DNA of 64,000 bases from Patescibacteria group bacterium (GTDB taxonomy: Bacteria > Patescibacteriota > Patescibacteriia > JAXHNJ01), in the NCBI GenBank assembly GCA_041649715.1, contig JBAZMP010000001.1:82741-146740 (forward strand), written 5' to 3'. Both the position numbers and the translations under genes were made by a program. The notes beneath the pieces are model-generated. The model saw only the letters and a list, made by a program, of their open reading frames with translations, searched no databases and was not told the DNA's origin. Below are positions 3,084 through 52,836 of the stretch, piece by piece (the first letter of the stretch is position 1; the number at the start of each line of letters is the position of its first letter).

Positions 3084-3125
3084 GTCTTGAAAAAAAATAT
3101 ATTTCGTGGCATCCTTTAAAATAAT

Positions 3126-3478
3126 GCGGGTATAGTATAATGGCTATTACCTGCCCGACTGCTTTGACAGCAGTCAAGGCGGGCGGGTGTCAGCTTTCTC
3201 CCGCAAAATAAGGAAGCGGAGCGACTATATTTTTCGAGGATCCCGCACGCAAAATAATAGTGTTCATTAAGCGGGCATAGTATAATGGCTATTATGTCAG
3301 CTTTCCAAGCTGAAAATACGGGTTCGATTCCCGTTGCCCGCTTAATGAGTGTTATTTTTCGGGATCCTCGCAACAAGATGGATTCACTTTGTTCATCTCA
3401 TCGTTGCGGGACAAGCTGAAAATACGGGTTCTGCGCCCGAGGCGCATCCGCCTTGGGTGGAGATTCCCGTTACCCGCT
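3126..3478 (+). tRNA. split or interrupted tRNA-Gly(TCC) gene with three insertions; either intron-containing or a pseudogene
   Basis: Exon pieces 3126-3149, 3188-3198, 3412-3431 and 3462-3478 reassemble into a tRNA-Gly that is near-identical to the intact copy. The insertions are 3150-3187 (hairpin), 3199-3411 (between anticodon nt 35 and 36, ends tcccgcaa/ttgcggga) and 3432-3461 (T-loop). Confidence 0.6.
3271..3342 (+). tRNA. tRNA-Gly, anticodon TCC, discriminator U; nested inside the 213-nt insertion of the split tRNA-Gly
   Basis: Acceptor gcgggca/tgcccgc, anticodon stem tcagc/gctga with loop ttTCCaa, 4-nt variable loop, T-arm acgggttcgattcccgt. Confidence 0.85.
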
Positions 3479-3579
3479 CCAATTTTTTTCGCTTTTAATA
3501 AGACTTGTTCTGCCGTTGGCAGGGGCCCTGCCCCAAAATTATTATTTTTAACGCCCATTAAGGCGATTTTTTTGTAAAA

Positions 3580-4275
3580 TTATAACACCGACTGTAATTT
3601 CTTTTTTGCTGAATTATAAAATTTTTCTGCTATTTCATATCCAGAAAAAGATCCCCCATTCTTTAAAACACTAACGCCTAAGTTTGCCGTACCCATAAAT
3701 GGGTCTAATATGTTCATGCCAGTTCTGAAATATTTTTTTATTATAAAATCAATTAATTCTTTGGGTTCAGCACAAGGATGTTCATTTGAATGCTTATAAT
3801 TAAAATAAAGAATTTCTCCAGTTTTATATTCAATTTTTGATTTATTAAAGACCAAGATTTGATGGCAATTAGAATGTGTGTTTGAAGAAGTCAAGTAATT
3901 TTTATCAAAACCATGATTGGGTAATTCAAAGCTATTTTTTGTATTTATAAAATTAATATGCCTTGTTTCCAAAAACATGTTAGCATTAACAACGGCATAT
4001 TTTTGAATCAAGCCAGCTAGTTGAATAAACTTGTTGTTAAAAAAGATGCTATCGGCAATTTCTATAATTAATCGGCCATCTTTTTTAAGTGTTTTTGCGC
4101 ATTCTTTAATTACATTCTTCATGAAGTTGAAATATTTTTCTAATTTTAATTTGTCAGTATAGCTGCCGTAATATGTCCCTATATTGTACGGTGGGCTAAA
4201 AAAGACAATGTCAACTGATTTTGGCTTAATTTCATTCATCGATTCCGATGATTTGTTAAAAATTGTATATTTCAT
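3580..4275 (-). CDS. DNA methyltransferase, beta-class (N6-adenine or N4-cytosine); no adjacent restriction enzyme seen
   Basis: Motif IV SPPY near the N-terminus (DIVFFSPPY) and motif I FxGxG near the C-terminus (DPFMGTANLG), which is the permuted beta-class order. Confidence 0.7.
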   Translation of the reverse strand: MKYTIFNKSSESMNEIKPKSVDIVFFSPPYNIGTYYGSYTDKLKLEKYFNFMKNVIKECAKTLKKDGRLIIEIADSIFFNNKFIQLAGLIQKYAVVNANMFLETRHINFINTKNSFELPNHGFDKNYLTSSNTHSNCHQILVFNKSKIEYKTGEILYFNYKHSNEHPCAEPKELIDFIIKKYFRTGMNILDPFMGTANLGVSVLKNGGSFSGYEIAEKFYNSAKKKLQSVL

Positions 4276-4651: not shown

Positions 4652-4736
4652 GCCGCCGTGGTGAAATTGCCGTGAACCACTAAAGGGTTCACGGCAACCC
4701 CGCACCCTTTAGTGGTGCGGGGTGGTATACACGCAA
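4652..4736 (+). pseudogene. duplicate of tRNA-Leu(TAA) nt 1-30, interrupted in the D-loop by a 55-nt double-hairpin element
   Basis: gccgccgtggtgaaattg at 4652-4669 and gtatacacgcaa at 4725-4736 are identical to positions 1-30 of the tRNA-Leu at 5011. The insert lies at 4670-4724. Confidence 0.8.
4670..4724 (+). repeat. double-hairpin element, copy B (ccgtgaacc-ACTAAAG-ggttcacgg caa ccccgcacc-CTTTAGT-ggtgcgggg)
   Basis: Same architecture and loops as the copies at 316-369 and 52367-52421. Confidence 0.8.
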
Positions 4737-4747
4737 TAATTAATATT

Positions 4748-5005
4748 ATGCATACAGTCTATATCCTTTTACTTTCGAATAAACAATTATACACTGGAAT
4801 CACTACAAATTTAATACGAAGAATAAATGAGCATAAAGAGAGAAAAAGTCCGTTTACAAAGAATCGATTGCCCGTTAAACTGATATTTTACGAAGTGTTT
4901 AACAATAAGGAAGATGCGGAAAAGAGAGAAAGATATTTTAAAACGAGTAAGGGGAAATATTCATTAAAGGCGTTACTACGACATGCATTGAGCAAATATA
5001 ATTGA
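4748..5005 (+). CDS. GIY-YIG nuclease family protein, small UPF0213/YhbQ-like; the ORF track starts at 4712 but ATG 4748 is the likely start
   Basis: VYILLLSNKQLYTGITTNLIRRINEH matches the GIY-x10-YIG...R...E motif. The upstream extension of the tracked ORF overlaps the tRNA fragment and hairpin element. Confidence 0.7.
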   Translation: MHTVYILLLSNKQLYTGITTNLIRRINEHKERKSPFTKNRLPVKLIFYEVFNNKEDAEKRERYFKTSKGKYSLKALLRHALSKYN

Positions 5006-5010
5006 TCCAT

Positions 5011-5097
5011 GCCGCCGTGGTGAAATTGGTATACACGCAAGACTTAAAATCTTGTGGGAGCAATCCCGTGTCGGTCCGAGTCCGACCGGCGGCACCA
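5011..5097 (+). tRNA. tRNA-Leu, anticodon TAA, type II with a long variable arm; CCA encoded
   Basis: Acceptor gccgccg/cggcggc, anticodon stem caaga/tcttg with loop ctTAAaa, variable arm gggagcaatccc, T-arm gtcggtccgagtccgac, terminal acca. Confidence 0.85.
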
Positions 5098-9460: not shown

Positions 9461-10045
9461 CTATAAACAATCACTTTTACTTATAGCAAAAAAGAAAGTT
9501 TGAGTTGAGTTTTGCACTTGATAAGAATATTCCATGTTTATATCTTGGTCTAGGAGATTATTCCTTGTTTCTGGTGTTTGGCAAGCATTGGGGGCGATGA
9601 TATTTTTCAGTGACTCATTTGTAAGTTGGCTTGTGTCAATATCATGGAGTGTATAAACATAACGAATTGCATTTGGTTCTGCTAAAATATCAGTCCAAGT
9701 CGTTACCGCATCAACTTGCTGAGGAAGTGTTGATTGGGCTTTTATTTCCTGGACGGATTCCTTGATAATATCCTGTTTAGAGTCGCCCCCTAAAATAGCG
9801 GAAGTACCGTTATATACAACATAACGAGCGACTAAAAATGCCATAATAAAAACTACTATGCCTATAACAGAGCCCACAAGTGATTTAATCTTTTTACTCT
9901 TTTTTCCTGGGGTTTTTTCTGATGTTTTGGGTGTTAATTCAGATTGAACGATTTTACCGCCGCAACTCTTGCAAAATTTTGCATTATCATTATTTTCGTT
10001 ACCACAATTTTTACAATATATTTTTTTCTCTTCGGTATTAGTCAT
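9461..10045 (-). CDS. zinc-ribbon membrane protein: N-terminal CxxC-x-CxxC, one transmembrane helix, extracytoplasmic C-terminal domain
   Basis: CKNCGNENNDNAKFCKSCG followed by a hydrophobic helix. Confidence 0.45.
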   Translation of the reverse strand: MTNTEEKKIYCKNCGNENNDNAKFCKSCGGKIVQSELTPKTSEKTPGKKSKKIKSLVGSVIGIVVFIMAFLVARYVVYNGTSAILGGDSKQDIIKESVQEIKAQSTLPQQVDAVTTWTDILAEPNAIRYVYTLHDIDTSQLTNESLKNIIAPNACQTPETRNNLLDQDINMEYSYQVQNSTQTFFFAISKSDCL

Positions 10046-10226
10046 AAATTAGTAATTAAATATTATTTTATTTATTCTGCACGGCTAGGCTCCAGATAGC
10101 AAGCTTGATTTTATTAGGTAGGTTTTTAAGGGTATAGTATTTTTTGTGTACCGCTCTTGTCCCGTCGGATGACGGGATCACGGGGCGCGCCGCAATGGAT
10201 ATAAAAAATTGGTTAGGGTTTCTATG

Positions 10227-11102
10227 TTAATTCATTATATTATTATTTCGGAAAATATCAAGAAACGAGGGAGTTGCATGACCAAAAGAGTATGAAGCGT
10301 TTAGGGTTTCTATATATGCCTGTTCTTTATATATTTTTAGTAATTTTTTCCCCTCATCAGTAATTGGCACCTCTTTCTCATTGATTTTTATTACCTTATA
10401 GCCACTCACAATTGATACAAGGCGGCCAGTCCTGATATCAAAAATTGGGCCACCACTATTTCCAGGGTTGAAAGCCATTGTAAATTCATATAGGTATTTA
10501 TCTTTAGAAGTTTGATATCTACAGTTAATAACACCCTTGTCGACCCTAAGTAGTATGTTACCAATTAATGGTTTACTTAAATCATTATTGGCAAAATCCA
10601 ATTTGCACAAAGGATATCCCAAAACACCAACTTCCGACCCAATCGGTAAAAAATCTTTTGAGATTCTAACAAAATCATTTCTATCTGCTAATATTTTGTC
10701 GTCAACCTGATAGAATTCCTTATCTAAATTAAATATTGCTAAGTCAATCTCGGGGAAAATAAACAAATCTTTATTTATTTTTGGTTCATAAATTCTATAG
10801 TGCCAACTATTATCATCGTCGTGTTTTAACAAATAATATTTGTCACCATCATGGTGCTGAGACGACTCATCTTTTTGAGTATTACTAACAACATGAGCAG
10901 CGGTTAATAATTTCTCCTGTGCTGCCACAAAACCAGTCCCAAGTGTGGTCCACCTAATTACTTGTTGATCGTTAATTTTTTCACTTCTACCACGTACAAT
11001 TATATAAACTGATTTTTTTAGCCACCTCACACATTCAGAAAATGAATGAAATTTTTCTGGTCTTTTTGGGATTCTGATTTTTTTATCTTTTGACATATTC
11101 AC
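10227..11102 (-). CDS. trypsin-like (S1 family) serine protease
   Basis: Catalytic triad context TAAHVV (His), DLAIF (Asp) and GNSGGPIF (Ser). Confidence 0.7.
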   Translation of the reverse strand: MNMSKDKKIRIPKRPEKFHSFSECVRWLKKSVYIIVRGRSEKINDQQVIRWTTLGTGFVAAQEKLLTAAHVVSNTQKDESSQHHDGDKYYLLKHDDDNSWHYRIYEPKINKDLFIFPEIDLAIFNLDKEFYQVDDKILADRNDFVRISKDFLPIGSEVGVLGYPLCKLDFANNDLSKPLIGNILLRVDKGVINCRYQTSKDKYLYEFTMAFNPGNSGGPIFDIRTGRLVSIVSGYKVIKINEKEVPITDEGKKLLKIYKEQAYIETLNASYSFGHATPSFLDIFRNNNIMN

Positions 11103-11135
11103 AACTTTAAAGGTGGGTTATTAAAAATCAATAAA

Positions 11136-13067
11136 CTACCTTTGGAATTTTTTTTCAACTAAGAATTTATGAATTTTATGCCCATATTGATTAACAAGCC
11201 TATTATGTTGGACGCTCACGGCGGCTGATGCCTCACCTAAAAATGGTTCCCCACTTTCAATTTTTCTTTTAGCAATTTCACGACAAACTGCTTCAACAAC
11301 TAGTTCAGCAAGCATAACTTGGCAGTGTCCTTCTTCTTGATTTTCGCCCTGTGGGCCAAAATACATTTCTACAGACGGTGCTTTTGTCGCAATAATTACT
11401 TGGCCACTAGATTGCTCAAACCTAACCCTTTGACGAGGATCAGCAATAGGACTGAAAGTAATTTCTCTAAATAAACCAGCTTTCTTTTTATCTGTAGGTT
11501 CTGGCGTTTTTCTTTTTGAAATGACTTTTACTAATGCCTCTGCTTGCAAGTTATTTGCAATTGCAGTGATTACTCCTTCTGCACCAACTTGTTTACCAAT
11601 AACATGGATCTGTGTAGTTACAATACCGCTTTCATCAGCACCTTTCTCATTTAGTACTATTTTAGGATTTATGACAATAACATTGTTATTGTCACTATTA
11701 ATTTTTATGGTCGCTCCAGGCGGTAATTTTAGGGGAACGATTACTTTAAGAGTAAGAGTTGCTTGGCAATCGACTACTAATTGACTATAGTCAGGGACAA
11801 AATCAAATCCATTTGGAGGTGGTTCATTAATAGTACCCTCCGACCCACCTGTCCCTTCGCCTTTAGTGTCTTCTAGCTCTAATTTAGCAATTTTATTTAA
11901 TTCAGGAAGGGCTGATTGAAAACGTTTTCTTGTTTTCTCACTCTCTAATTTATTTTCACTTTCTTTAGCCAATTTTTCCTCGTCTTTAACAAATTTTTCA
12001 ACTTCCTTACTAATTATTTGGTCAAGCGCTTTTGAAAAATTATCAGTCCAGTCTATGCCTTGTCGATCTGATCTAATAATTGGCCTTTGTTCTACTCTTA
12101 ATAGATGGTCAATATAATCTACGACTGCCCTTCCGTATAATCTTACGGCGTATATATTACCTTCAAATTTTTTAGTTAGTGTAATATCAAGAACCGCGCC
12201 CTTGGATTTTACTAAAATCCCGCTTTCCCTTAGCGGCCCTTCGTCATCATAGCTACTTAGTGGTTCATCAGACCTATAGAGTTCCAGATCAATTTTTGCC
12301 GCATTATAACCCGGCACAGTAAGTTCAGTATGCTCATATAATTTCCCTTTTGGTAATATATACGATAGTTCCTCTTGCCTTTTAATTTTCTCTCTCCCAT
12401 TCTTTTCGATTAGGACTACTTCTCTCATTTTGCTGCTCATTATGTCTCGCAGACTATAATAATGCTCCAATTGCCTTTTTAAATTATCATATTGCGGAAT
12501 TCTAATTTGAGAATTTAGAGCTTTTAGAGTTATACAGGTTCCGTTACTCTCAATTCCGATATCTTTTCGCATCTGTTTTGTGACTTTACATGGTATATAG
12601 CGTTTATAGTTAAGATGTTCAAGAATGCATTTGTTATACGATTGCTCTATAACTGATTCAACGGTACCATAACCAAAAGCGATCATGGCTTCTTTTAATC
12701 CTCTGCCCCAATACCCTCTTCCAGCTTGTTCTTCCGTAAATTCACTTGTATCGCCACCATATTCAGCGACGCGCTCATCCATCTTAAACTCATTAAAACC
12801 CTCGGCATAATCGATTACTCGCACTACTGATCCTTGACGTTTTCTGATAAGTTCAATTATTATTTTTCCACTATTTTTAATATTTTTATTCTCAAGTCGT
12901 CGATAGGAGTCATCACAATTTGTGATTAACTCAATAAGTGCCAAAACCGCATTATTTTTAATTGTGGCTCTAGCTTGTTGTTCGGCAACACGTTGATGTA
13001 AGTGAATTTGTTTATTGACTGCGATGTCCATAAAATTAATTCTTAATTTTGCGTCTATGCATGCCAC
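11136..13067 (-). CDS. GHKL-superfamily (HATPase_c-like) ATPase domain protein, 643 aa, with a long uncharacterised C-terminal region
   Basis: Bergerat-fold motifs: N-box ELITNCDDS, G1-like IDYAEGF, G2 GRGYWGRGLKEA. Confidence 0.55.
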   Translation of the reverse strand: MACIDAKLRINFMDIAVNKQIHLHQRVAEQQARATIKNNAVLALIELITNCDDSYRRLENKNIKNSGKIIIELIRKRQGSVVRVIDYAEGFNEFKMDERVAEYGGDTSEFTEEQAGRGYWGRGLKEAMIAFGYGTVESVIEQSYNKCILEHLNYKRYIPCKVTKQMRKDIGIESNGTCITLKALNSQIRIPQYDNLKRQLEHYYSLRDIMSSKMREVVLIEKNGREKIKRQEELSYILPKGKLYEHTELTVPGYNAAKIDLELYRSDEPLSSYDDEGPLRESGILVKSKGAVLDITLTKKFEGNIYAVRLYGRAVVDYIDHLLRVEQRPIIRSDRQGIDWTDNFSKALDQIISKEVEKFVKDEEKLAKESENKLESEKTRKRFQSALPELNKIAKLELEDTKGEGTGGSEGTINEPPPNGFDFVPDYSQLVVDCQATLTLKVIVPLKLPPGATIKINSDNNNVIVINPKIVLNEKGADESGIVTTQIHVIGKQVGAEGVITAIANNLQAEALVKVISKRKTPEPTDKKKAGLFREITFSPIADPRQRVRFEQSSGQVIIATKAPSVEMYFGPQGENQEEGHCQVMLAELVVEAVCREIAKRKIESGEPFLGEASAAVSVQHNRLVNQYGHKIHKFLVEKKFQR

Positions 13068-13704
13068 CTACGTATTTTTTATCTAACTCCATAGGTGAGT
13101 TAAGCAGCCTGGAGAATCTCGTTTCGCACATTTTAAGAAATTCTACCAAGTCATTTCTGTTATAATCTTCGACAGCTTCAAATAATTGTTGTAAGTTTTT
13201 TCTCCTCGTTTCCGGAAGGGAATCGAGGGTACAGTATATTAAATCACAAAACTCAAATTCGGATATCTTTATTGTATTTCCAACTCTAAGATACTCTTTA
13301 TATTTACTATTTTCTTCCAGTTGTTTAACTAATCGACCACTTTTTGTCCTTCGGTCGCCTTTAATCGCAAGTAGTTTCTTTGTGTCTATTTCGTGAGCTC
13401 CAAGAACTTTACGAATCTTTTGAACGATATTTAAACCTCGGCCCGTAATTTCGAATCCCTGAGCCTTACTGCCTGTAATTAAGCCTTTGTCTGTTCTACA
13501 TCTTAACCAACATTTTTCAACCTGAGATGAATCAGGATATTTTGAAATATAACCAGGCAATCCGAATCTTTGTGGAAAAAGCTCATAACATTCAACAACA
13601 AGATTCTCAAAGTTTGTTACTTTATTCCTCTGGATTAATGAGTATAAGGCAAATACTAATAAATCATCATAAGGAATTTTATTATAAATTTTTGGGTCAA
13701 ACAT
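13036..13704 (-). CDS. hypothetical protein, 222 aa, in an operon with the GHKL ATPase
   Basis: ORF overlaps the downstream gene by about 30 nt, suggesting translational coupling. No motif recognised. Confidence 0.4.
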   Translation of the reverse strand: MFDPKIYNKIPYDDLLVFALYSLIQRNKVTNFENLVVECYELFPQRFGLPGYISKYPDSSQVEKCWLRCRTDKGLITGSKAQGFEITGRGLNIVQKIRKVLGAHEIDTKKLLAIKGDRRTKSGRLVKQLEENSKYKEYLRVGNTIKISEFEFCDLIYCTLDSLPETRRKNLQQLFEAVEDYNRNDLVEFLKMCETRFSRLLNSPMELDKKYVGGMHRRKIKN

Positions 13705-13712
13705 AATATTAT

Positions 13713-13952
13713 CTATTTAAGCTTAAATCTTTGATCTTTGGTTGTGTGGTGAAATTTTGATTTAACGTCGCGGACCATTTTTTCAATAGAATCAAAAATT
13801 TTTCGGACATCACTTTCCGTATAATCATATGCTTGACGATTCGCACAATTCCCTAAAATCATAAGTTTATTTAAAACTTCATTTGTTCTGTATTCGGCAA
13901 GTCTTTTAAATCTATCTGCTTTTGACTCGTTAATTGGGGGTTTGGGTTTCAT
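13713..13952 (-). CDS. hypothetical small basic protein, 79 aa
   Basis: Tightly spaced within the minus-strand operon. Confidence 0.35.
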   Translation of the reverse strand: MKPKPPINESKADRFKRLAEYRTNEVLNKLMILGNCANRQAYDYTESDVRKIFDSIEKMVRDVKSKFHHTTKDQRFKLK

Positions 13953-14130
13953 TGTATTTTTTTAAATCTTAAATTATTGAATTACTTATGAGTTTACTTA
14001 AAGGTTAAAAAATGGTTATATCATCTAAAAATTAGTCTAATACCATTAGTAATCATTGTCAAGATATAATATTGTGGATAACTAAAAAAGACCGAATTAA
14101 ATCGGCTAATATTAGCGAAAAAATACTATT

Positions 14131-14773: not shown

Positions 14774-16237
14774 ATGAAATATTTAATTTACGCCAGAAAA
14801 TCAACGGACGAGGACGACCGGCAAGTATTGTCCATAGAATCGCAAATAACAGAATTAAGAGAATTTGCCGTCAAGGAAAATTTAGAAATTATTGATGAAT
14901 ACATAGAAAGCAAGACGGCCAAAGCGCCCGGTCGTCCTCTTTTTAATAAAATGATAGAACGAATTGAAAAAAACGGTCCCATGGGAATTTTGGCGTGGCA
15001 TCCCGACCGATTGGCGAGAAACAGCATTGACGGAGGGAAAATTATTTATTTGGTTGATACCGGCAAAATCGGCGGTTTAAAGTTTCCCACTTTTTGGTTT
15101 GATGCCACGCCGCAGGGAAAATTCATGCTTAATATCGCTTTCGGCCAGAGCAAATACTATATTGATAACTTGTGTGAAAACATCAAGCGCGGCATACGCC
15201 AGAAATTAAGAAGAGGCGAATGGCCAGGGCTCGCGCCATTAGGGTATCTCAACGAATTGCGCCACCATACAATTATTAAAGACCCCGAGCGTTGGCCCAT
15301 AGTCAAAAAACTCTTTGAGGCGTATGCCGCGGGCAATCATACTTTGGAAAGTTTAAAACAGTTGTCGCTTTCGCTGGGCTTGGTGAGCCGAAGGTCCGGA
15401 AAACCGATAGTCATCACGATACTTTCGGATATGCTGACCAATCCGTTTTATTACGGCGTATTCGAGCACAGCGGTGAAATGCACCAGGGGACGCACGAGC
15501 CGATCATTACCAAACGGCTTTTTGACGCCGTTCAAAAAATCCATAATACCAAGCGCAAGACAAGAGTAAGAAAAGAGCTGATTCCTTTCGCTTTCCGAGG
15601 CGTATTTACCTGCGGCGAGTGCGGCCGAATGATTACGGCGGAAAGAAAGAAAAAGCCGTCAGGATTGAAATATATTTATTACCGCTGTACGAAAAAGAAT
15701 GTTGTTTGTTCCCAGAAATTCCTGGAAGAAAGGCGATTGGTCAGCCAGATTAATAAAACTATTGCGAGCGTCGCCCTTCCCGAAGATTGGAAAGACAAGA
15801 TGATAAAAAGGGTTGACGAAGAGATAAAGCAAGCTAAAACCAAACATCAAGGCGAGATTGTAGTGTTAAAAAATGAGCAAGCTAAGTTAGAATCAAAGCT
15901 TTTGCGACTGCTTGACGAACGGCTTGATCAGGCAATTTCCAAGCAGATTTTTTCCCAAGCAAAACAAAAAATCGTCAACCGGCAGGTTGAGATTAAAGAA
16001 TTGTTGGATGGGTTTAAACGGAAGGGCGACGCTCGGCTCGAACTCTTTAAAGAGTGGATTTTAGAGGCTCACCAAGCCCCTTTTATCGCAAAGCAGGAAA
16101 ATTTAGAAGTTAAGAGAAATTATATACAAAAAATTGGCTCGAACTTCCAAGTCTTCGGGCAAAAAGCCCTAATTTTATTATCTAATCAGTGGTTATTCGC
16201 CACAAAAAAATCGCAATTTACGAACTGGAGCGGGTGA
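14774..16237 (+). CDS. large serine recombinase (resolvase/integrase family with recombinase domain, zinc ribbon and coiled coil)
   Basis: N-terminal YARKSTDEDDRQVLSIESQ with the catalytic Ser-containing motif; recombinase domain. C-terminal Cys cluster CGECG...YYRC. The last roughly 30 codons lie inside repeat copy C. Confidence 0.75.
   Translation: MKYLIYARKSTDEDDRQVLSIESQITELREFAVKENLEIIDEYIESKTAKAPGRPLFNKMIERIEKNGPMGILAWHPDRLARNSIDGGKIIYLVDTGKIGGLKFPTFWFDATPQGKFMLNIAFGQSKYYIDNLCENIKRGIRQKLRRGEWPGLAPLGYLNELRHHTIIKDPERWPIVKKLFEAYAAGNHTLESLKQLSLSLGLVSRRSGKPIVITILSDMLTNPFYYGVFEHSGEMHQGTHEPIITKRLFDAVQKIHNTKRKTRVRKELIPFAFRGVFTCGECGRMITAERKKKPSGLKYIYYRCTKKNVVCSQKFLEERRLVSQINKTIASVALPEDWKDKMIKRVDEEIKQAKTKHQGEIVVLKNEQAKLESKLLRLLDERLDQAISKQIFSQAKQKIVNRQVEIKELLDGFKRKGDARLELFKEWILEAHQAPFIAKQENLEVKRNYIQKIGSNFQVFGQKALILLSNQWLFATKKSQFTNWSG
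16139..16229. repeat. inverted repeat copy C: a 92-bp perfect inverted partner of 14609-14705, ending at the CCA end of tRNA-Gly(GCC)
   Basis: Direct comparison. The repeat stops at ctggagc, overlapping the tRNA 3' terminus. Confidence 0.85.
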
Positions 16238-16301
16238 GCGGAGTCGAACCGCCGACCTTCTCCTTGGCAAGGAGACGTTCTAGCCACTGAACTACACCCG
16301 C
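16226..16301 (-). tRNA. tRNA-Gly, anticodon GCC, discriminator U; CCA encoded
   Basis: Reverse complement gives acceptor gcgggtg/cacccgc, anticodon stem tctcc/ggaga with loop ttGCCaa, T-arm ggcggttcgactccgct, terminal tcca. Confidence 0.85.
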
Positions 16302-16419: not shown

Positions 16420-16478
16420 AAAGTTCATTTTCGAAGACCACTTTCCGCCCAAGGCGGACCCGCCTCTGGCGGGGGCTA
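16420..16478 (-). pseudogene. tRNA-Cys-like fragment: ttcgaa, then GC hairpins, then a 12-nt copy of the tRNA-Cys 5' end (ggctacgtgacc)
   Basis: ggctacgtgacc at 16467-16478 duplicates 16373-16384. The preceding ccgcccaaggcgg and cccgcctctggcggg hairpins replace the tRNA body. Confidence 0.45.
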
Positions 16479-16531
16479 CGTGACCGAAACGGTATTTAAT
16501 ATTCTAGCAAATTCCTTAGAATTTACAAGGC

Positions 16532-52234: not shown

Positions 52235-52347
52235 ATTATTATTTGCACCCTTCCTTTTGATTAATTAATTGATAATTACACTTGAAAATAATTTTAAAAA
52301 AAATGCCTGGTAGGCGGGAATAATATTTAATTTTTAATAAAATTATG

Positions 52348-52424
52348 GTGAGCGTAGAGGGATTCGCCTTGAACTACTGAAGAGTTCACGGCTGCCCCGA
52401 ACCCTTTAGTGGTTTGGGGCGAAC
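52348..52424 (-). pseudogene. tRNA-Lys 3' fragment (copy of the acceptor 3' strand and T-arm) interrupted in the T-loop by a 55-nt double-hairpin element
   Basis: gtgagcgtagagggattcg at 52348-52366 plus aac at 52422-52424 match gtgagcgcagagggattcgaac of the intact gene at 52466-52487. The insert lies at 52367-52421. Confidence 0.75.
52367..52421 (+). repeat. double-hairpin element, copy C (ccttgaact-ACTGAAG-agttcacgg ct gccccgaacc-CTTTAGT-ggtttggggc)
   Basis: The loop 1 A-to-G change still pairs with loop 2 through G:U. The stem 2 changes are compensatory. Confidence 0.8.
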
Positions 52425-52630: not shown

Positions 52631-52836
52631 AAGATGCTAATAATATGATCCTAATAAACAATTGTGATATCTCCCGCCAGGCAAGGCGGGATCCTCGTCA
52701 ATTATCAAAATCGGAGATTTTGTAATTGACGGGACAATTTCACTACGAGGGCGAGATTGTTCGTGTTAAAAATAATATCATTTTCCAACAAAAAAATCAA
52801 GGTTCTGGCTTGATGTATTCTTCGGGATAAATATTA

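Follow-up and report, generated by a model that had tools for sequence, protein, structure and literature searches.

A stretch of 64,000 nucleotides from a Patescibacteria group bacterium (hereafter, the window) carries at positions 3126 to 3478 a tRNA-Gly(UCC) gene that is split by three insertions, the second of which contains another, intact tRNA-Gly(UCC) gene. The locus raises the question of whether the outer gene is spliced into a working tRNA, or whether it is what remains of a gene that was broken open by an element carrying its own tRNA. The first-pass annotation of this DNA, made from the sequence alone, had offered both an intron system and a tRNA-targeting mobile cassette with a replacement tRNA. 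The comparative data fit the latter, and it is considered probable, with real room left for error, that a non-autonomous palindromic cassette, bringing a tRNA to replace the one it broke, has reduced the outer gene to a remnant. More broadly, the locus looks like one case of a widespread colonization of tRNA genes by small mobile DNA, and not like a spliced gene.

The four pieces of the outer gene (3126 to 3149, 3188 to 3198, 3412 to 3431 and 3462 to 3478) are collinear and exactly abutting, and when joined they rebuild, as had been proposed, a complete tRNA-Gly(UCC) of exactly 72 nt that ARAGORN calls as tRNA-Gly(tcc). On the raw window sequence, ARAGORN and Rfam recognised the inner copy (3271 to 3342) alone, and an Rfam E-value scan of the whole window for partial tRNAs returned nothing beyond 12 intact genes. 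The joined outer gene and the inner gene are identical at 70 of 72 positions, anticodon arm included, and differ solely at position 6 (T versus C) and position 67 (A versus G). BLAST searches of the pieces against the inner tRNA gave E-values of 3e-6 (24 nt), 0.78 (11 nt), 3e-6 (20 nt) and 0.05 (17 nt), and the match of all four, judged by sequence, lies far beyond chance. In the numbering used here, insertions 1, 2 and 3 fall at 24/25, 35/36 and 56/57, the first of them within the 3' strand of the D stem. The region from 3116 to 3490 is predicted to fold, at -172 kcal/mol (z = -10.2), into two cloverleaves, the outer one bearing three flush helical inserts and the inner one capping a long helix. 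The parts of the locus are as follows, with related loci in other assemblies numbered by the prefix L.

3085 to 3125, forward strand: presumed promoter or upstream region of the outer gene, conserved upstream of the uninterrupted gene of L003 and the interrupted gene of L002 (cttgaaaaaa...tggcat.ctttaaaataa)
3126 to 3149, forward strand: outer piece 1, tRNA positions 1 to 24; 23/24 identical to the inner tRNA and identical to the intact gene of L003
3150 to 3187, forward strand: insertion 1, a 38-nt flush hairpin paired from its first to its last base
3188 to 3198, forward strand: outer piece 2, tRNA positions 25 to 35; 11/11 identical to the inner tRNA
3199 to 3245, forward strand: end module A of insertion 2, consisting of TCCCG, a hairpin and CGAGGATCCCG; the same module occurs in 18 genome loci and 3 metagenome contigs, and its own stem covaries
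3246 to 3270, forward strand: leader of the cargo tRNA, variable among relatives, which pairs with the trailer and lengthens the acceptor stem
3271 to 3342, forward strand: cargo, an intact and presumably functional tRNA-Gly(UCC) without encoded CCA (Rfam tRNA, 68.7 bits; called by ARAGORN)
3343 to 3359, forward strand: trailer of the cargo tRNA, pairing with the leader
3360 to 3411, reverse strand: end module A', a diverged inverted copy of A, reading TCCCGCAA...GCGAGGATCCCG on the minus strand; it can be aligned to the A modules, whose stem it fits
3412 to 3431, forward strand: outer piece 3, tRNA positions 36 to 56; 20/20 identical to the inner tRNA
3432 to 3461, forward strand: insertion 3, a 30-nt double mini-hairpin in the T loop (56/57), with a homologous 30-nt insert at the same site in L001
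3462 to 3481, forward strand: outer piece 4, tRNA positions 57 to 73, with CCA and then a T run; 16/17 identical to the inner tRNA

The outer gene thus carries an encoded CCA (3479 to 3481) followed by a T run, and the inner gene carries no CCA. A sigma-70 consensus scan and a terminator scan found no promoter upstream of 3126 and no canonical terminator, and a promoter function of 3085 to 3125 is presumptive. The annotated size, position and termini of insertion 2 (213 nt; 35/36; tcccgcaa at the start and ttgcggga at the end) were all correct, as was the inverted pair cgaggatcccg / cgggatcctcg, which lies at 3235 to 3245 and 3360 to 3370. Its boundary is unambiguous, the 5' exon ending in ...TTTC and the insertion in ...GCGGGA. 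No target-site duplication is present at insertion 2, the exons joining to exactly 72 nt without a repeated base, and no open reading frame (ORF) was found on the sense strand of the 213-bp element. The host is, on sequence grounds, a bacterium of the Candidate Phyla Radiation (CPR), because the window encodes trigger factor, bacterial NusA and bacterial IF-2, and because the methyltransferase adjoining the nest matches, at 100% identity, a protein from a 'Patescibacteria group bacterium' metagenome-assembled genome (MAG).

Relatives of the locus show what the outer gene looked like before it was interrupted and what has become of it since. In L003, a methyltransferase 78% identical to that of the window adjoins an uninterrupted tRNA-Gly(UCC) with CCA that is identical to the joined outer gene at 72 of 72 positions and has a similar upstream region; by its sequence, this is the empty site. 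In L002, which is syntenic with the window, and in L006, an independent assembly of the L002 sequence, insertion 1 (37/38 identical) and the 213-nt insert are kept; the outer T arm and insertion 3 are deleted, the joined outer sequence receives no ARAGORN call, and the inner tRNA is a different tRNA-Gly(UCC), 76% identical to that of the window. L001 (GCA_043816305.1) holds a messier nest with extra orphan 3' pieces bearing a T-loop double hairpin, and its outer gene is chimeric: the 3' half resembles the outer gene of L009, which creates a T27-T43 mismatch with its own 5' half. The outer tRNA-Ser of L019 has an uncompensated change in the anticodon stem and is likewise not called by ARAGORN. 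Both the uninterrupted allele (L003) and the interrupted alleles (L002/L006 and L001) that the annotation had suggested looking for were therefore found, and so was the decay of outer pieces (L002/L006, L019 and L001) that it had named as pointing to a dead gene. Because the outer gene is truncated, chimeric or damaged in L002/L006, L001 and L019, it would be dispensable. Relatives reached via P0002 and P0009 lie on contigs that end before the tRNA-Gly.

The pair at positions 6 and 67 had been read as a compensatory change and, from this, as a sign of selection on the outer gene. The difference is real; the argument for selection fails, as U6:A67 is the resident allele, also present in the uninterrupted gene of L003. 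C6:G67 occurs in the cargo of L009, the one other cargo in which this pair was read, and in the window it may have been inherited from the cargo lineage; it could be the leftover of an imported cargo whose interior has since been converted to the resident sequence. Because U6:A67 is resident and C6:G67 recurs in the L009 cargo, the outer and inner copies appear to have diverged as functional genes prior to nesting.

Comparison of nests also separates the cassette from the gene that it occupies. When the window is compared with L002, the stretch from the promoter to the end of the leader is 92 to 100% identical (97 to 100% up to the end of module A), whereas identity is 76% for the cargo, 75% for the trailer and 87% for the 3' arm, a profile that reads as a recombination mosaic. 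Across five tRNA-Gly(UCC) nests, module A is 85 to 98% identical, the outer 5' exons 77 to 100% and the cargo 70 to 97%. The cargo is clearly unlike the resident gene in L002, L009, L020 and L004, as would fit a cassette, and the cargo of L002 resembles that of L009 (88%).

A different account of the same nests is that they are home-grown: the resident tRNA would have been duplicated locally and gene-converted at host-made palindromes, without a mobile element taking part. The cargo and the outer gene are indeed 97% identical in the window and 86% identical in L001, where the cargo is identical to the resident-type sequence; the outer 5' half and the cargo have lineage-specific substitutions in common in L018 and L019, which point to gene conversion within those nests; and a remnant in L015 resembles a simple partial tandem duplication. 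Against this stand the foreign cargo in L002, L009, L020 and L004, the existence of the empty site in L003, and a module of about 47 nt with invariant ends that is found in distant phyla and many tRNA genes. Such a local origin is regarded as very improbable. That the nest is an assembly artefact in which strain variants of one tRNA gene were merged is almost certainly wrong: although the sequences are MAGs, the same architecture recurs in independent assemblies and samples (L002 = L006) and on over 20 contigs that come from separate projects, one of them a closed chromosome of 1.9 Mb, and the window itself lies on a 608-kb contig.

The suggestion that insertion 2 is a self-splicing or endonuclease-processed intron was not borne out by the signatures of known introns. 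In a cmscan of 3100 to 3500 at E <= 10, only the inner tRNA and noise were reported, so that the proposed check against the group I intron model (RF00028) came back empty, and Rfam group I models at gathering score had no match in the window or at any of 18 related loci. Group I introns of Patescibacteria tRNAs, which also occur at 35/36, follow an exon that ends in U and themselves end in G (PMC13011429); at insertion 2 these bases are C and A, and together with the Rfam results this rules out a group I intron. A bulge-helix-bulge (BHB) intron, or an archaeal host, is ruled out by the bacterial marker proteins and by the pair table, which has no staggered 3-nt bulges: the two ends of each insert face each other at the base of a continuous helix, with a 2x1 internal loop at that point in insertion 2. 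No tRNA splicing endonuclease or ligase was seen among the 58 ORFs scanned in the 64-kb window of the 608-kb contig. The intron mode of ARAGORN did not detect these inserts because it examines canonical positions only. In L022 (6193 to 6818), this mode predicts a tRNA-Ser(GGA) with a 531-nt anticodon-loop insert, which may be a group I intron or a false call.

Nor is there a sign of sole-copy tRNAs hidden by such inserts, because the tRNA set detected by standard tools covers all 20 amino acids in 85 of 95 complete Patescibacteria genomes, and the missing ones, mainly Asn and Asp, were traced to group I introns (PMC13011429). A home-made regular expression for T-loop inserts recovered the true cases and was too noisy for counting sole-copy interrupted tRNAs.

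What these signatures leave is a new, protein-dependent class of bacterial tRNA intron, in which a dimeric endonuclease would cut at flush, dyad-symmetric paired hairpins, both the TCCCG...CGGGA modules and the double hairpins, and a ligase would rejoin the exons to give two tRNA-Gly per transcript. The exons of the window are perfect, each insert starts and ends exactly at the base of a helix stacked on an exon helix, an invariant TCCCG...CGGGA helix closes the junctions, and most outer genes that have both halves stay tRNA-like; moreover, the inserts are spread over the D arm, the anticodon loop and the T loop, which is also where archaeal tRNAs with several introns carry them, and introns at 35/36 are tolerated in Patescibacteria (PMC13011429). 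However, an intact tRNA of the same identity lies inside or beside every interrupted copy, which spliced introns would not need, and the outer genes of L002/L006, L001 and L019 are truncated, chimeric or mismatched. In addition, the Leu, Lys and Cys cases in the window are half-genes only, no junction sequence is common to the three inserts, neither a BHB nor a group I signature is present, G:U pairs are almost missing from the covariation described below, and the tRNA sets of complete genomes show no gap that would require such introns (PMC13011429). A spliced outer gene is accordingly held to be unlikely.

The reading of insertion 2 as a mobile cassette rests on its end modules. The cassette consists of two inverted end modules of about 47 to 52 nt, each a self-folding hairpin between TCCCG and GAGGATCCCG, placed around the cargo, with cassette termini TCCCG...CGGGA. 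In an alignment of 29 module copies, TCCCG is followed by a stem of 7 to 9 bp, a variable apex, the return strand and CGAGGATCCCG. Both sides of the stem change at 7 of 12 pairs, 94.5% of cells are paired, and the observed score was reached by none of 500 shuffles; examples of the stem include AAAAAT/ATTTTT, TCAATTA/TAATTGA and CAAATTC/GAATTTG. In module A, as in a 54-nt double hairpin described below, almost all of these changes are full Watson-Crick switches with hardly any G:U, which favours DNA palindromes over RNA helices, albeit in a small sample. The arms had at first seemed inverted relative to the tRNA in L004, L010 and L022; because the 3' arm is a diverged inverted copy of module A, both arms are copies of one module and arm orientation is uninformative. 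A link to BamHI-like restriction, considered on account of GGATCC in each end module and the N6/N4 DNA methylase gene (3580 to 4275, minus strand) directly downstream of the tRNA-Gly nest, was rejected, as GGATCC is not clearly avoided in the window (12 sites versus 18.5 +/- 4 expected).

The stability of the nest could also reflect an adopted processing scaffold, that is, outer pieces and arms kept as a rod that stabilizes the precursor or guides cleavage (e.g., by RNase III) to free the inner tRNA. The very stable fold (z = -10.2), the lengthening of the inner acceptor stem by leader and trailer, and the 97 to 100% identity of the window and L002 over the stretch that starts at the promoter and ends with module A, set against 76% in the cargo, would all suit such a role, although a recombination boundary explains the conserved block equally easily. 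The outer parts are freely lost or scrambled in relatives, the cassettes of L018 and L019 almost lack a 3' arm, and the covariation backs the self-folding of each module, not the rod. For the window copy, the two folds have similar energies (-87.8 kcal/mol as a rod versus -80.6 kcal/mol with module A folded on itself). Overall, a scaffold function is thought improbable.

The distribution of the module gives the palindromic cassette its wider setting. A search with a 20-mer from the 5' arm of insertion 2 matched 3 metagenome contigs: L006; L004, in which a tRNA-Ala(UGC) is nested in a tRNA-Ala at 35/36; and L005, in which a tRNA-Ser(UGA) lies beside a tRNA-Ser 5' half ending at position 35. A looser two-part pattern matched 18 loci among GTDB species representatives, one of which (L011) looks like a chance match. 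In total, the copies amount to three modules in the window and 21 further contigs. Module A occurs in the loops of at least 10 kinds of tRNA gene, namely tRNA-Gly (UCC, GCC and CCC), Ala, Ser (UGA and GCU), Leu(UAG), Met, Val and Pro, in Saccharibacteria, Parcubacteria, Kerfeldbacteria, Giovannonibacteria and Jorgensenbacteria, and, outside Patescibacteria, in three MAGs (a closed WOR-3 chromosome and two Bacteroidota). Within remnants, its sites are the D loop, the anticodon stem or loop (30/31, 34/35 and 35/36) and the T loop (55/56).

Every informative locus has, inside the remnant or within about 1 kb of it, an intact tRNA whose identity and orientation are those of the remnant, and the cargo, where present, is an intact tRNA of the same identity as the interrupted gene. 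Elements without cargo sit in the T loops of remnants with an intact tRNA nearby in L008 (tRNA-Gly) and L023 (apparently tRNA-Thr). It is from this distribution that mobility is inferred, and the element would move at the DNA level; only insertions into a cognate tRNA gene would then survive, with the cargo replacing the gene destroyed. A phage origin was considered and set aside, since no module was found in IMG/VR viral contigs and GenBank phages match the tRNA part alone.

Some copies outside the nests proper deserve separate mention. In the two Bacteroidota MAGs (L015, 2040 to 2560; L024, 6450 to 6640), a single end module lies in the D loop of a tRNA-Val remnant beside an intact tRNA-Val, and in the remnants of L015 the anticodon arm is replaced by a hairpin, cccgagtactcggg. 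The third end module of the window (52687 to 52752, minus strand) has the fully compensated stem TCAATTA/TAATTGA and is located upstream of a tRNA-Arg(UCG); it follows an 18-nt tRNA-Leu-like 5' fragment (gccctcgtagtgaaattg), with no matching intact tRNA-Leu nearby.

Insertions 1 and 3 appear to have reached the outer gene after the cassette, because L009 and L020 have the same cassette but neither insertion in their outer genes. The annotation had called each of them a small hairpin. This holds for insertion 1, which is fully paired and in which the single change between the window and L002 turns T:G into C:G; it was seen only in the window and in this one relative (with L006 as the independent assembly of the same sequence). 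Insertion 3, compared with its counterpart in L001, is better read as two adjacent 6-bp mini-hairpins, and further double mini-hairpins of 30 nt lie in the window's tRNA-Cys remnant and in a tRNA-Pro remnant of L001. A larger, 54-nt double hairpin consists of two inverted hairpins with complementary loops, in which both sides change at 14 of 27 pairs, loop-loop pairs included (ACTAAAG/CTTTAGT versus ACGTAG/CTACGT); to judge from these changes, it is a palindrome of palindromes or forms a loop-loop contact. In tRNA-Leu remnants, it is accompanied by a possible 2-nt duplication (TG or CA). The window copies of the 54-nt motif are confined to remnant tRNA pieces, and the double-hairpin families of insertion 3 turned up only in remnants, probably because they are harmless there.

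Several other nests and remnants lie in the window. The window begins inside one of them (1 to 385), where a tRNA-Ile (13 to 89) lies between the inverted repeat gaggcagatggt / accatttgcctc and a tRNA-Phe (144 to 217) between tcccgcaccaaa / tttggtgcggga, followed by a tRNA-Phe 3' remnant (304 to 385) with a 54-nt T-loop double hairpin (315 to 368). In the syntenic L002, a tRNA-Ile is nested in a tRNA-Ile at 35/36 right after the 16S rRNA gene, and an apparent three-level tRNA-Phe nest is present. An orphan tRNA-Lys 3' piece (52346 to 52424, minus strand), with encoded CCA and a 55-nt T-loop double hairpin (52366 to 52420), lies 44 nt past an intact tRNA-Lys that has no CCA. A tRNA-Cys 5' remnant (16436 to 16485, minus strand; ggtcacgtagcc), followed by a 30-nt double mini-hairpin, lies about 50 nt upstream of an intact tRNA-Cys.

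The tRNA-Leu(UAA) nest (4652 to 5097), 1.3 kb downstream of the tRNA-Gly nest, bears on the machinery that might move such elements. Its 5' remnant (4652 to 4669 and 4723 to 4735) is split by a 53-nt double hairpin (4670 to 4722) with a possible TG duplication, and is followed by a GIY-YIG ORF (4748 to 5005; Pfam E = 3e-15) and then by an intact tRNA-Leu (5011 to 5097). Homologues of this protein, of about 84 aa and containing the catalytic domain only, end 5 to 9 nt before an intact tRNA-Leu in 5/5 loci; a tRNA-Leu 5' remnant with the same double hairpin lies upstream of the ORF in all five, and in L028 and L029 a tRNA-Leu 3' remnant also follows. The tRNA-Gly cassette holds no endonuclease gene, and a Pfam scan of 85 ORFs near 18 module loci found no transposase or integrase, and a GIY-YIG domain only in L001. 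In that locus, the GIY-YIG ORF ends 5 nt before a tRNA-Cys. The small GIY-YIG nucleases are the only candidates seen for a moving enzyme, and a role for them in the tRNA-Gly cassette is speculation; the chimeric outer gene of L001 and the window-L002 mosaic may hint at co-converted flanks. Elsewhere in the window, a large serine recombinase (XisF/Ccr-like; 14774 to 16237) overlaps with its 3' end a tRNA-Gly(GCC) (16226 to 16301), beside a low-GC stretch (10000 to 14000; about 0.345 over 10 to 14 kb); this may be a separate integrated element.

Taking the outer gene as the remnant of a cassette insertion, the events at this locus could be pictured as follows. A resident tRNA-Gly(UCC) gene, with its own upstream region, CCA and T run, would have been cut open between anticodon positions 35 and 36 by the 213-bp element. 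The inner tRNA would now be the working gene, presumably transcribed from the resident promoter within a precursor of about 350 nt and freed by the ordinary tRNA end-processing enzymes, with CCA added after transcription. The outer pieces would be an unspliced remnant that later gained insertions 1 and 3.

It should be noted that several points weigh against this picture. When the inserts are cut out exactly, ARAGORN still recognises 9 or 10 of 12 outer genes as tRNAs, and in the window all inserts are flush, the exons free of mutation and the junctions exact. What survives of the 3' outer pieces in L002 matches the window at 26/26 positions, with 78 to 87% identity in the neighbouring sequence, which hints weakly at constraint, or else at a recombination boundary. 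The dyad-symmetric TCCCG/CGGGA junction, flush with the exon ends, might suit a dimeric RNA endonuclease. Furthermore, beyond a presumed selection against non-cognate insertions, the picture does not account for how cargo and target come to match across at least 10 tRNAs, and no transposase, integrase or nuclease was found linked to the cassette (58 window ORFs; 85 ORFs within 2.5 kb of module loci).

Among known systems, the closest in principle are the genomic islands and prophages that integrate at tRNA genes by tyrosine integrases (Islander, PMC4383910), which likewise target a tRNA gene, restore a working tRNA and leave a displaced fragment. As in an integrative element, the cargo tRNA is intact and of the same identity, and outer remnants lie on both sides. 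Islands, however, span kilobases and encode an integrase, whereas the cassette has 213 bp and no gene; and an island duplicates no more of the tRNA than lies beyond the crossover, usually its 3' part, and leaves one fragment, whereas the cassette carries a whole tRNA and leaves remnants on both sides. In architecture, the cassette is more like REPINs, bacterial interspersed mosaic elements (BIMEs) and palindromic miniature inverted-repeat transposable elements (MITEs), which are short and gene-less, consist of two inverted hairpin modules, occur in many copies and are moved in trans, as the cassette putatively is. Inverted hairpin modules (A and A'), dispersed copies and an empty site (L003) are all present here. 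These elements, though, lie between genes and carry no cargo, unlike cassettes in tRNA loops with tRNA cargo, and no RAYT-type or other transposase for the cassette was found among the 58 window ORFs or the 85 ORFs near module loci. Free-standing GIY-YIG homing endonucleases of tRNA clusters (phage T4 SegB, PMC2330249; PMC13096335) resemble the sister tRNA-Leu nests, where a GIY-YIG gene travels with a tRNA and the old copy is displaced; the tRNA-Gly cassette differs in having no nuclease, and the proteins of about 84 aa, being a catalytic domain only, are putative nucleases.

Three kinds of RNA-level insert invite comparison as well. The group I introns of bacterial tRNAs (PMC13011429) occur in the same phylum and at the same site, 35/36, in host genes missed by annotation tools; the cassette differs in having no RF00028 core (E <= 10) and neither U at -1 nor a terminal G, in being a palindrome with a central tRNA, and in that any splicing of it is at most hypothetical. 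The multi-BHB-intron, split and permuted tRNAs of archaea and red algae can likewise be interrupted as many as three times, in the D arm, the anticodon loop and the T loop, with dyad-symmetric junctions, but the present host is a bacterium, the sites face each other directly and are not staggered in two 3-nt bulges, and an intact copy is always present. The intervening sequences of 23S rRNA and the rRNA inserts of CPR bacteria (PMC11270868) also place short helices at the tips or bases of stem-loops and are common in this phylum; intervening sequences are excised without re-ligation and the rRNA still works, whereas a tRNA cut in three places would not. That a mobile element can restore the tRNA gene it disrupts is a known principle, from genomic islands; its form here, a gene-less palindrome of about 200 bp with a whole tRNA, nested in the old gene, appears to be new. 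In the literature on Patescibacteria tRNA group I introns, CPR rRNA insertions, tRNA gene fragments and tFind, no nested tRNAs, tRNA-carrying palindromes or remnant hairpin inserts were found, although novelty is thereby unproven.

Were the outer tRNA to be spliced after all, the locus would reveal a new bacterial RNA processing pathway, a tRNA splicing without a ribozyme. If, on the other hand, it is the remnant of a cassette insertion, then very small genomes would host gene-less palindromic elements that survive by replacing the tRNA gene they destroy, and such an element would be hard to lose, as it holds the only working copy. Remnants would come to be nested in remnants, tRNA alleles would spread between lineages, and the many tRNA-like fragments left behind would confuse annotation. 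Finally, an activity that recognises the loops of tRNA genes would be implied in these bacteria, for which the tRNA-Leu-linked GIY-YIG nucleases would be candidates.

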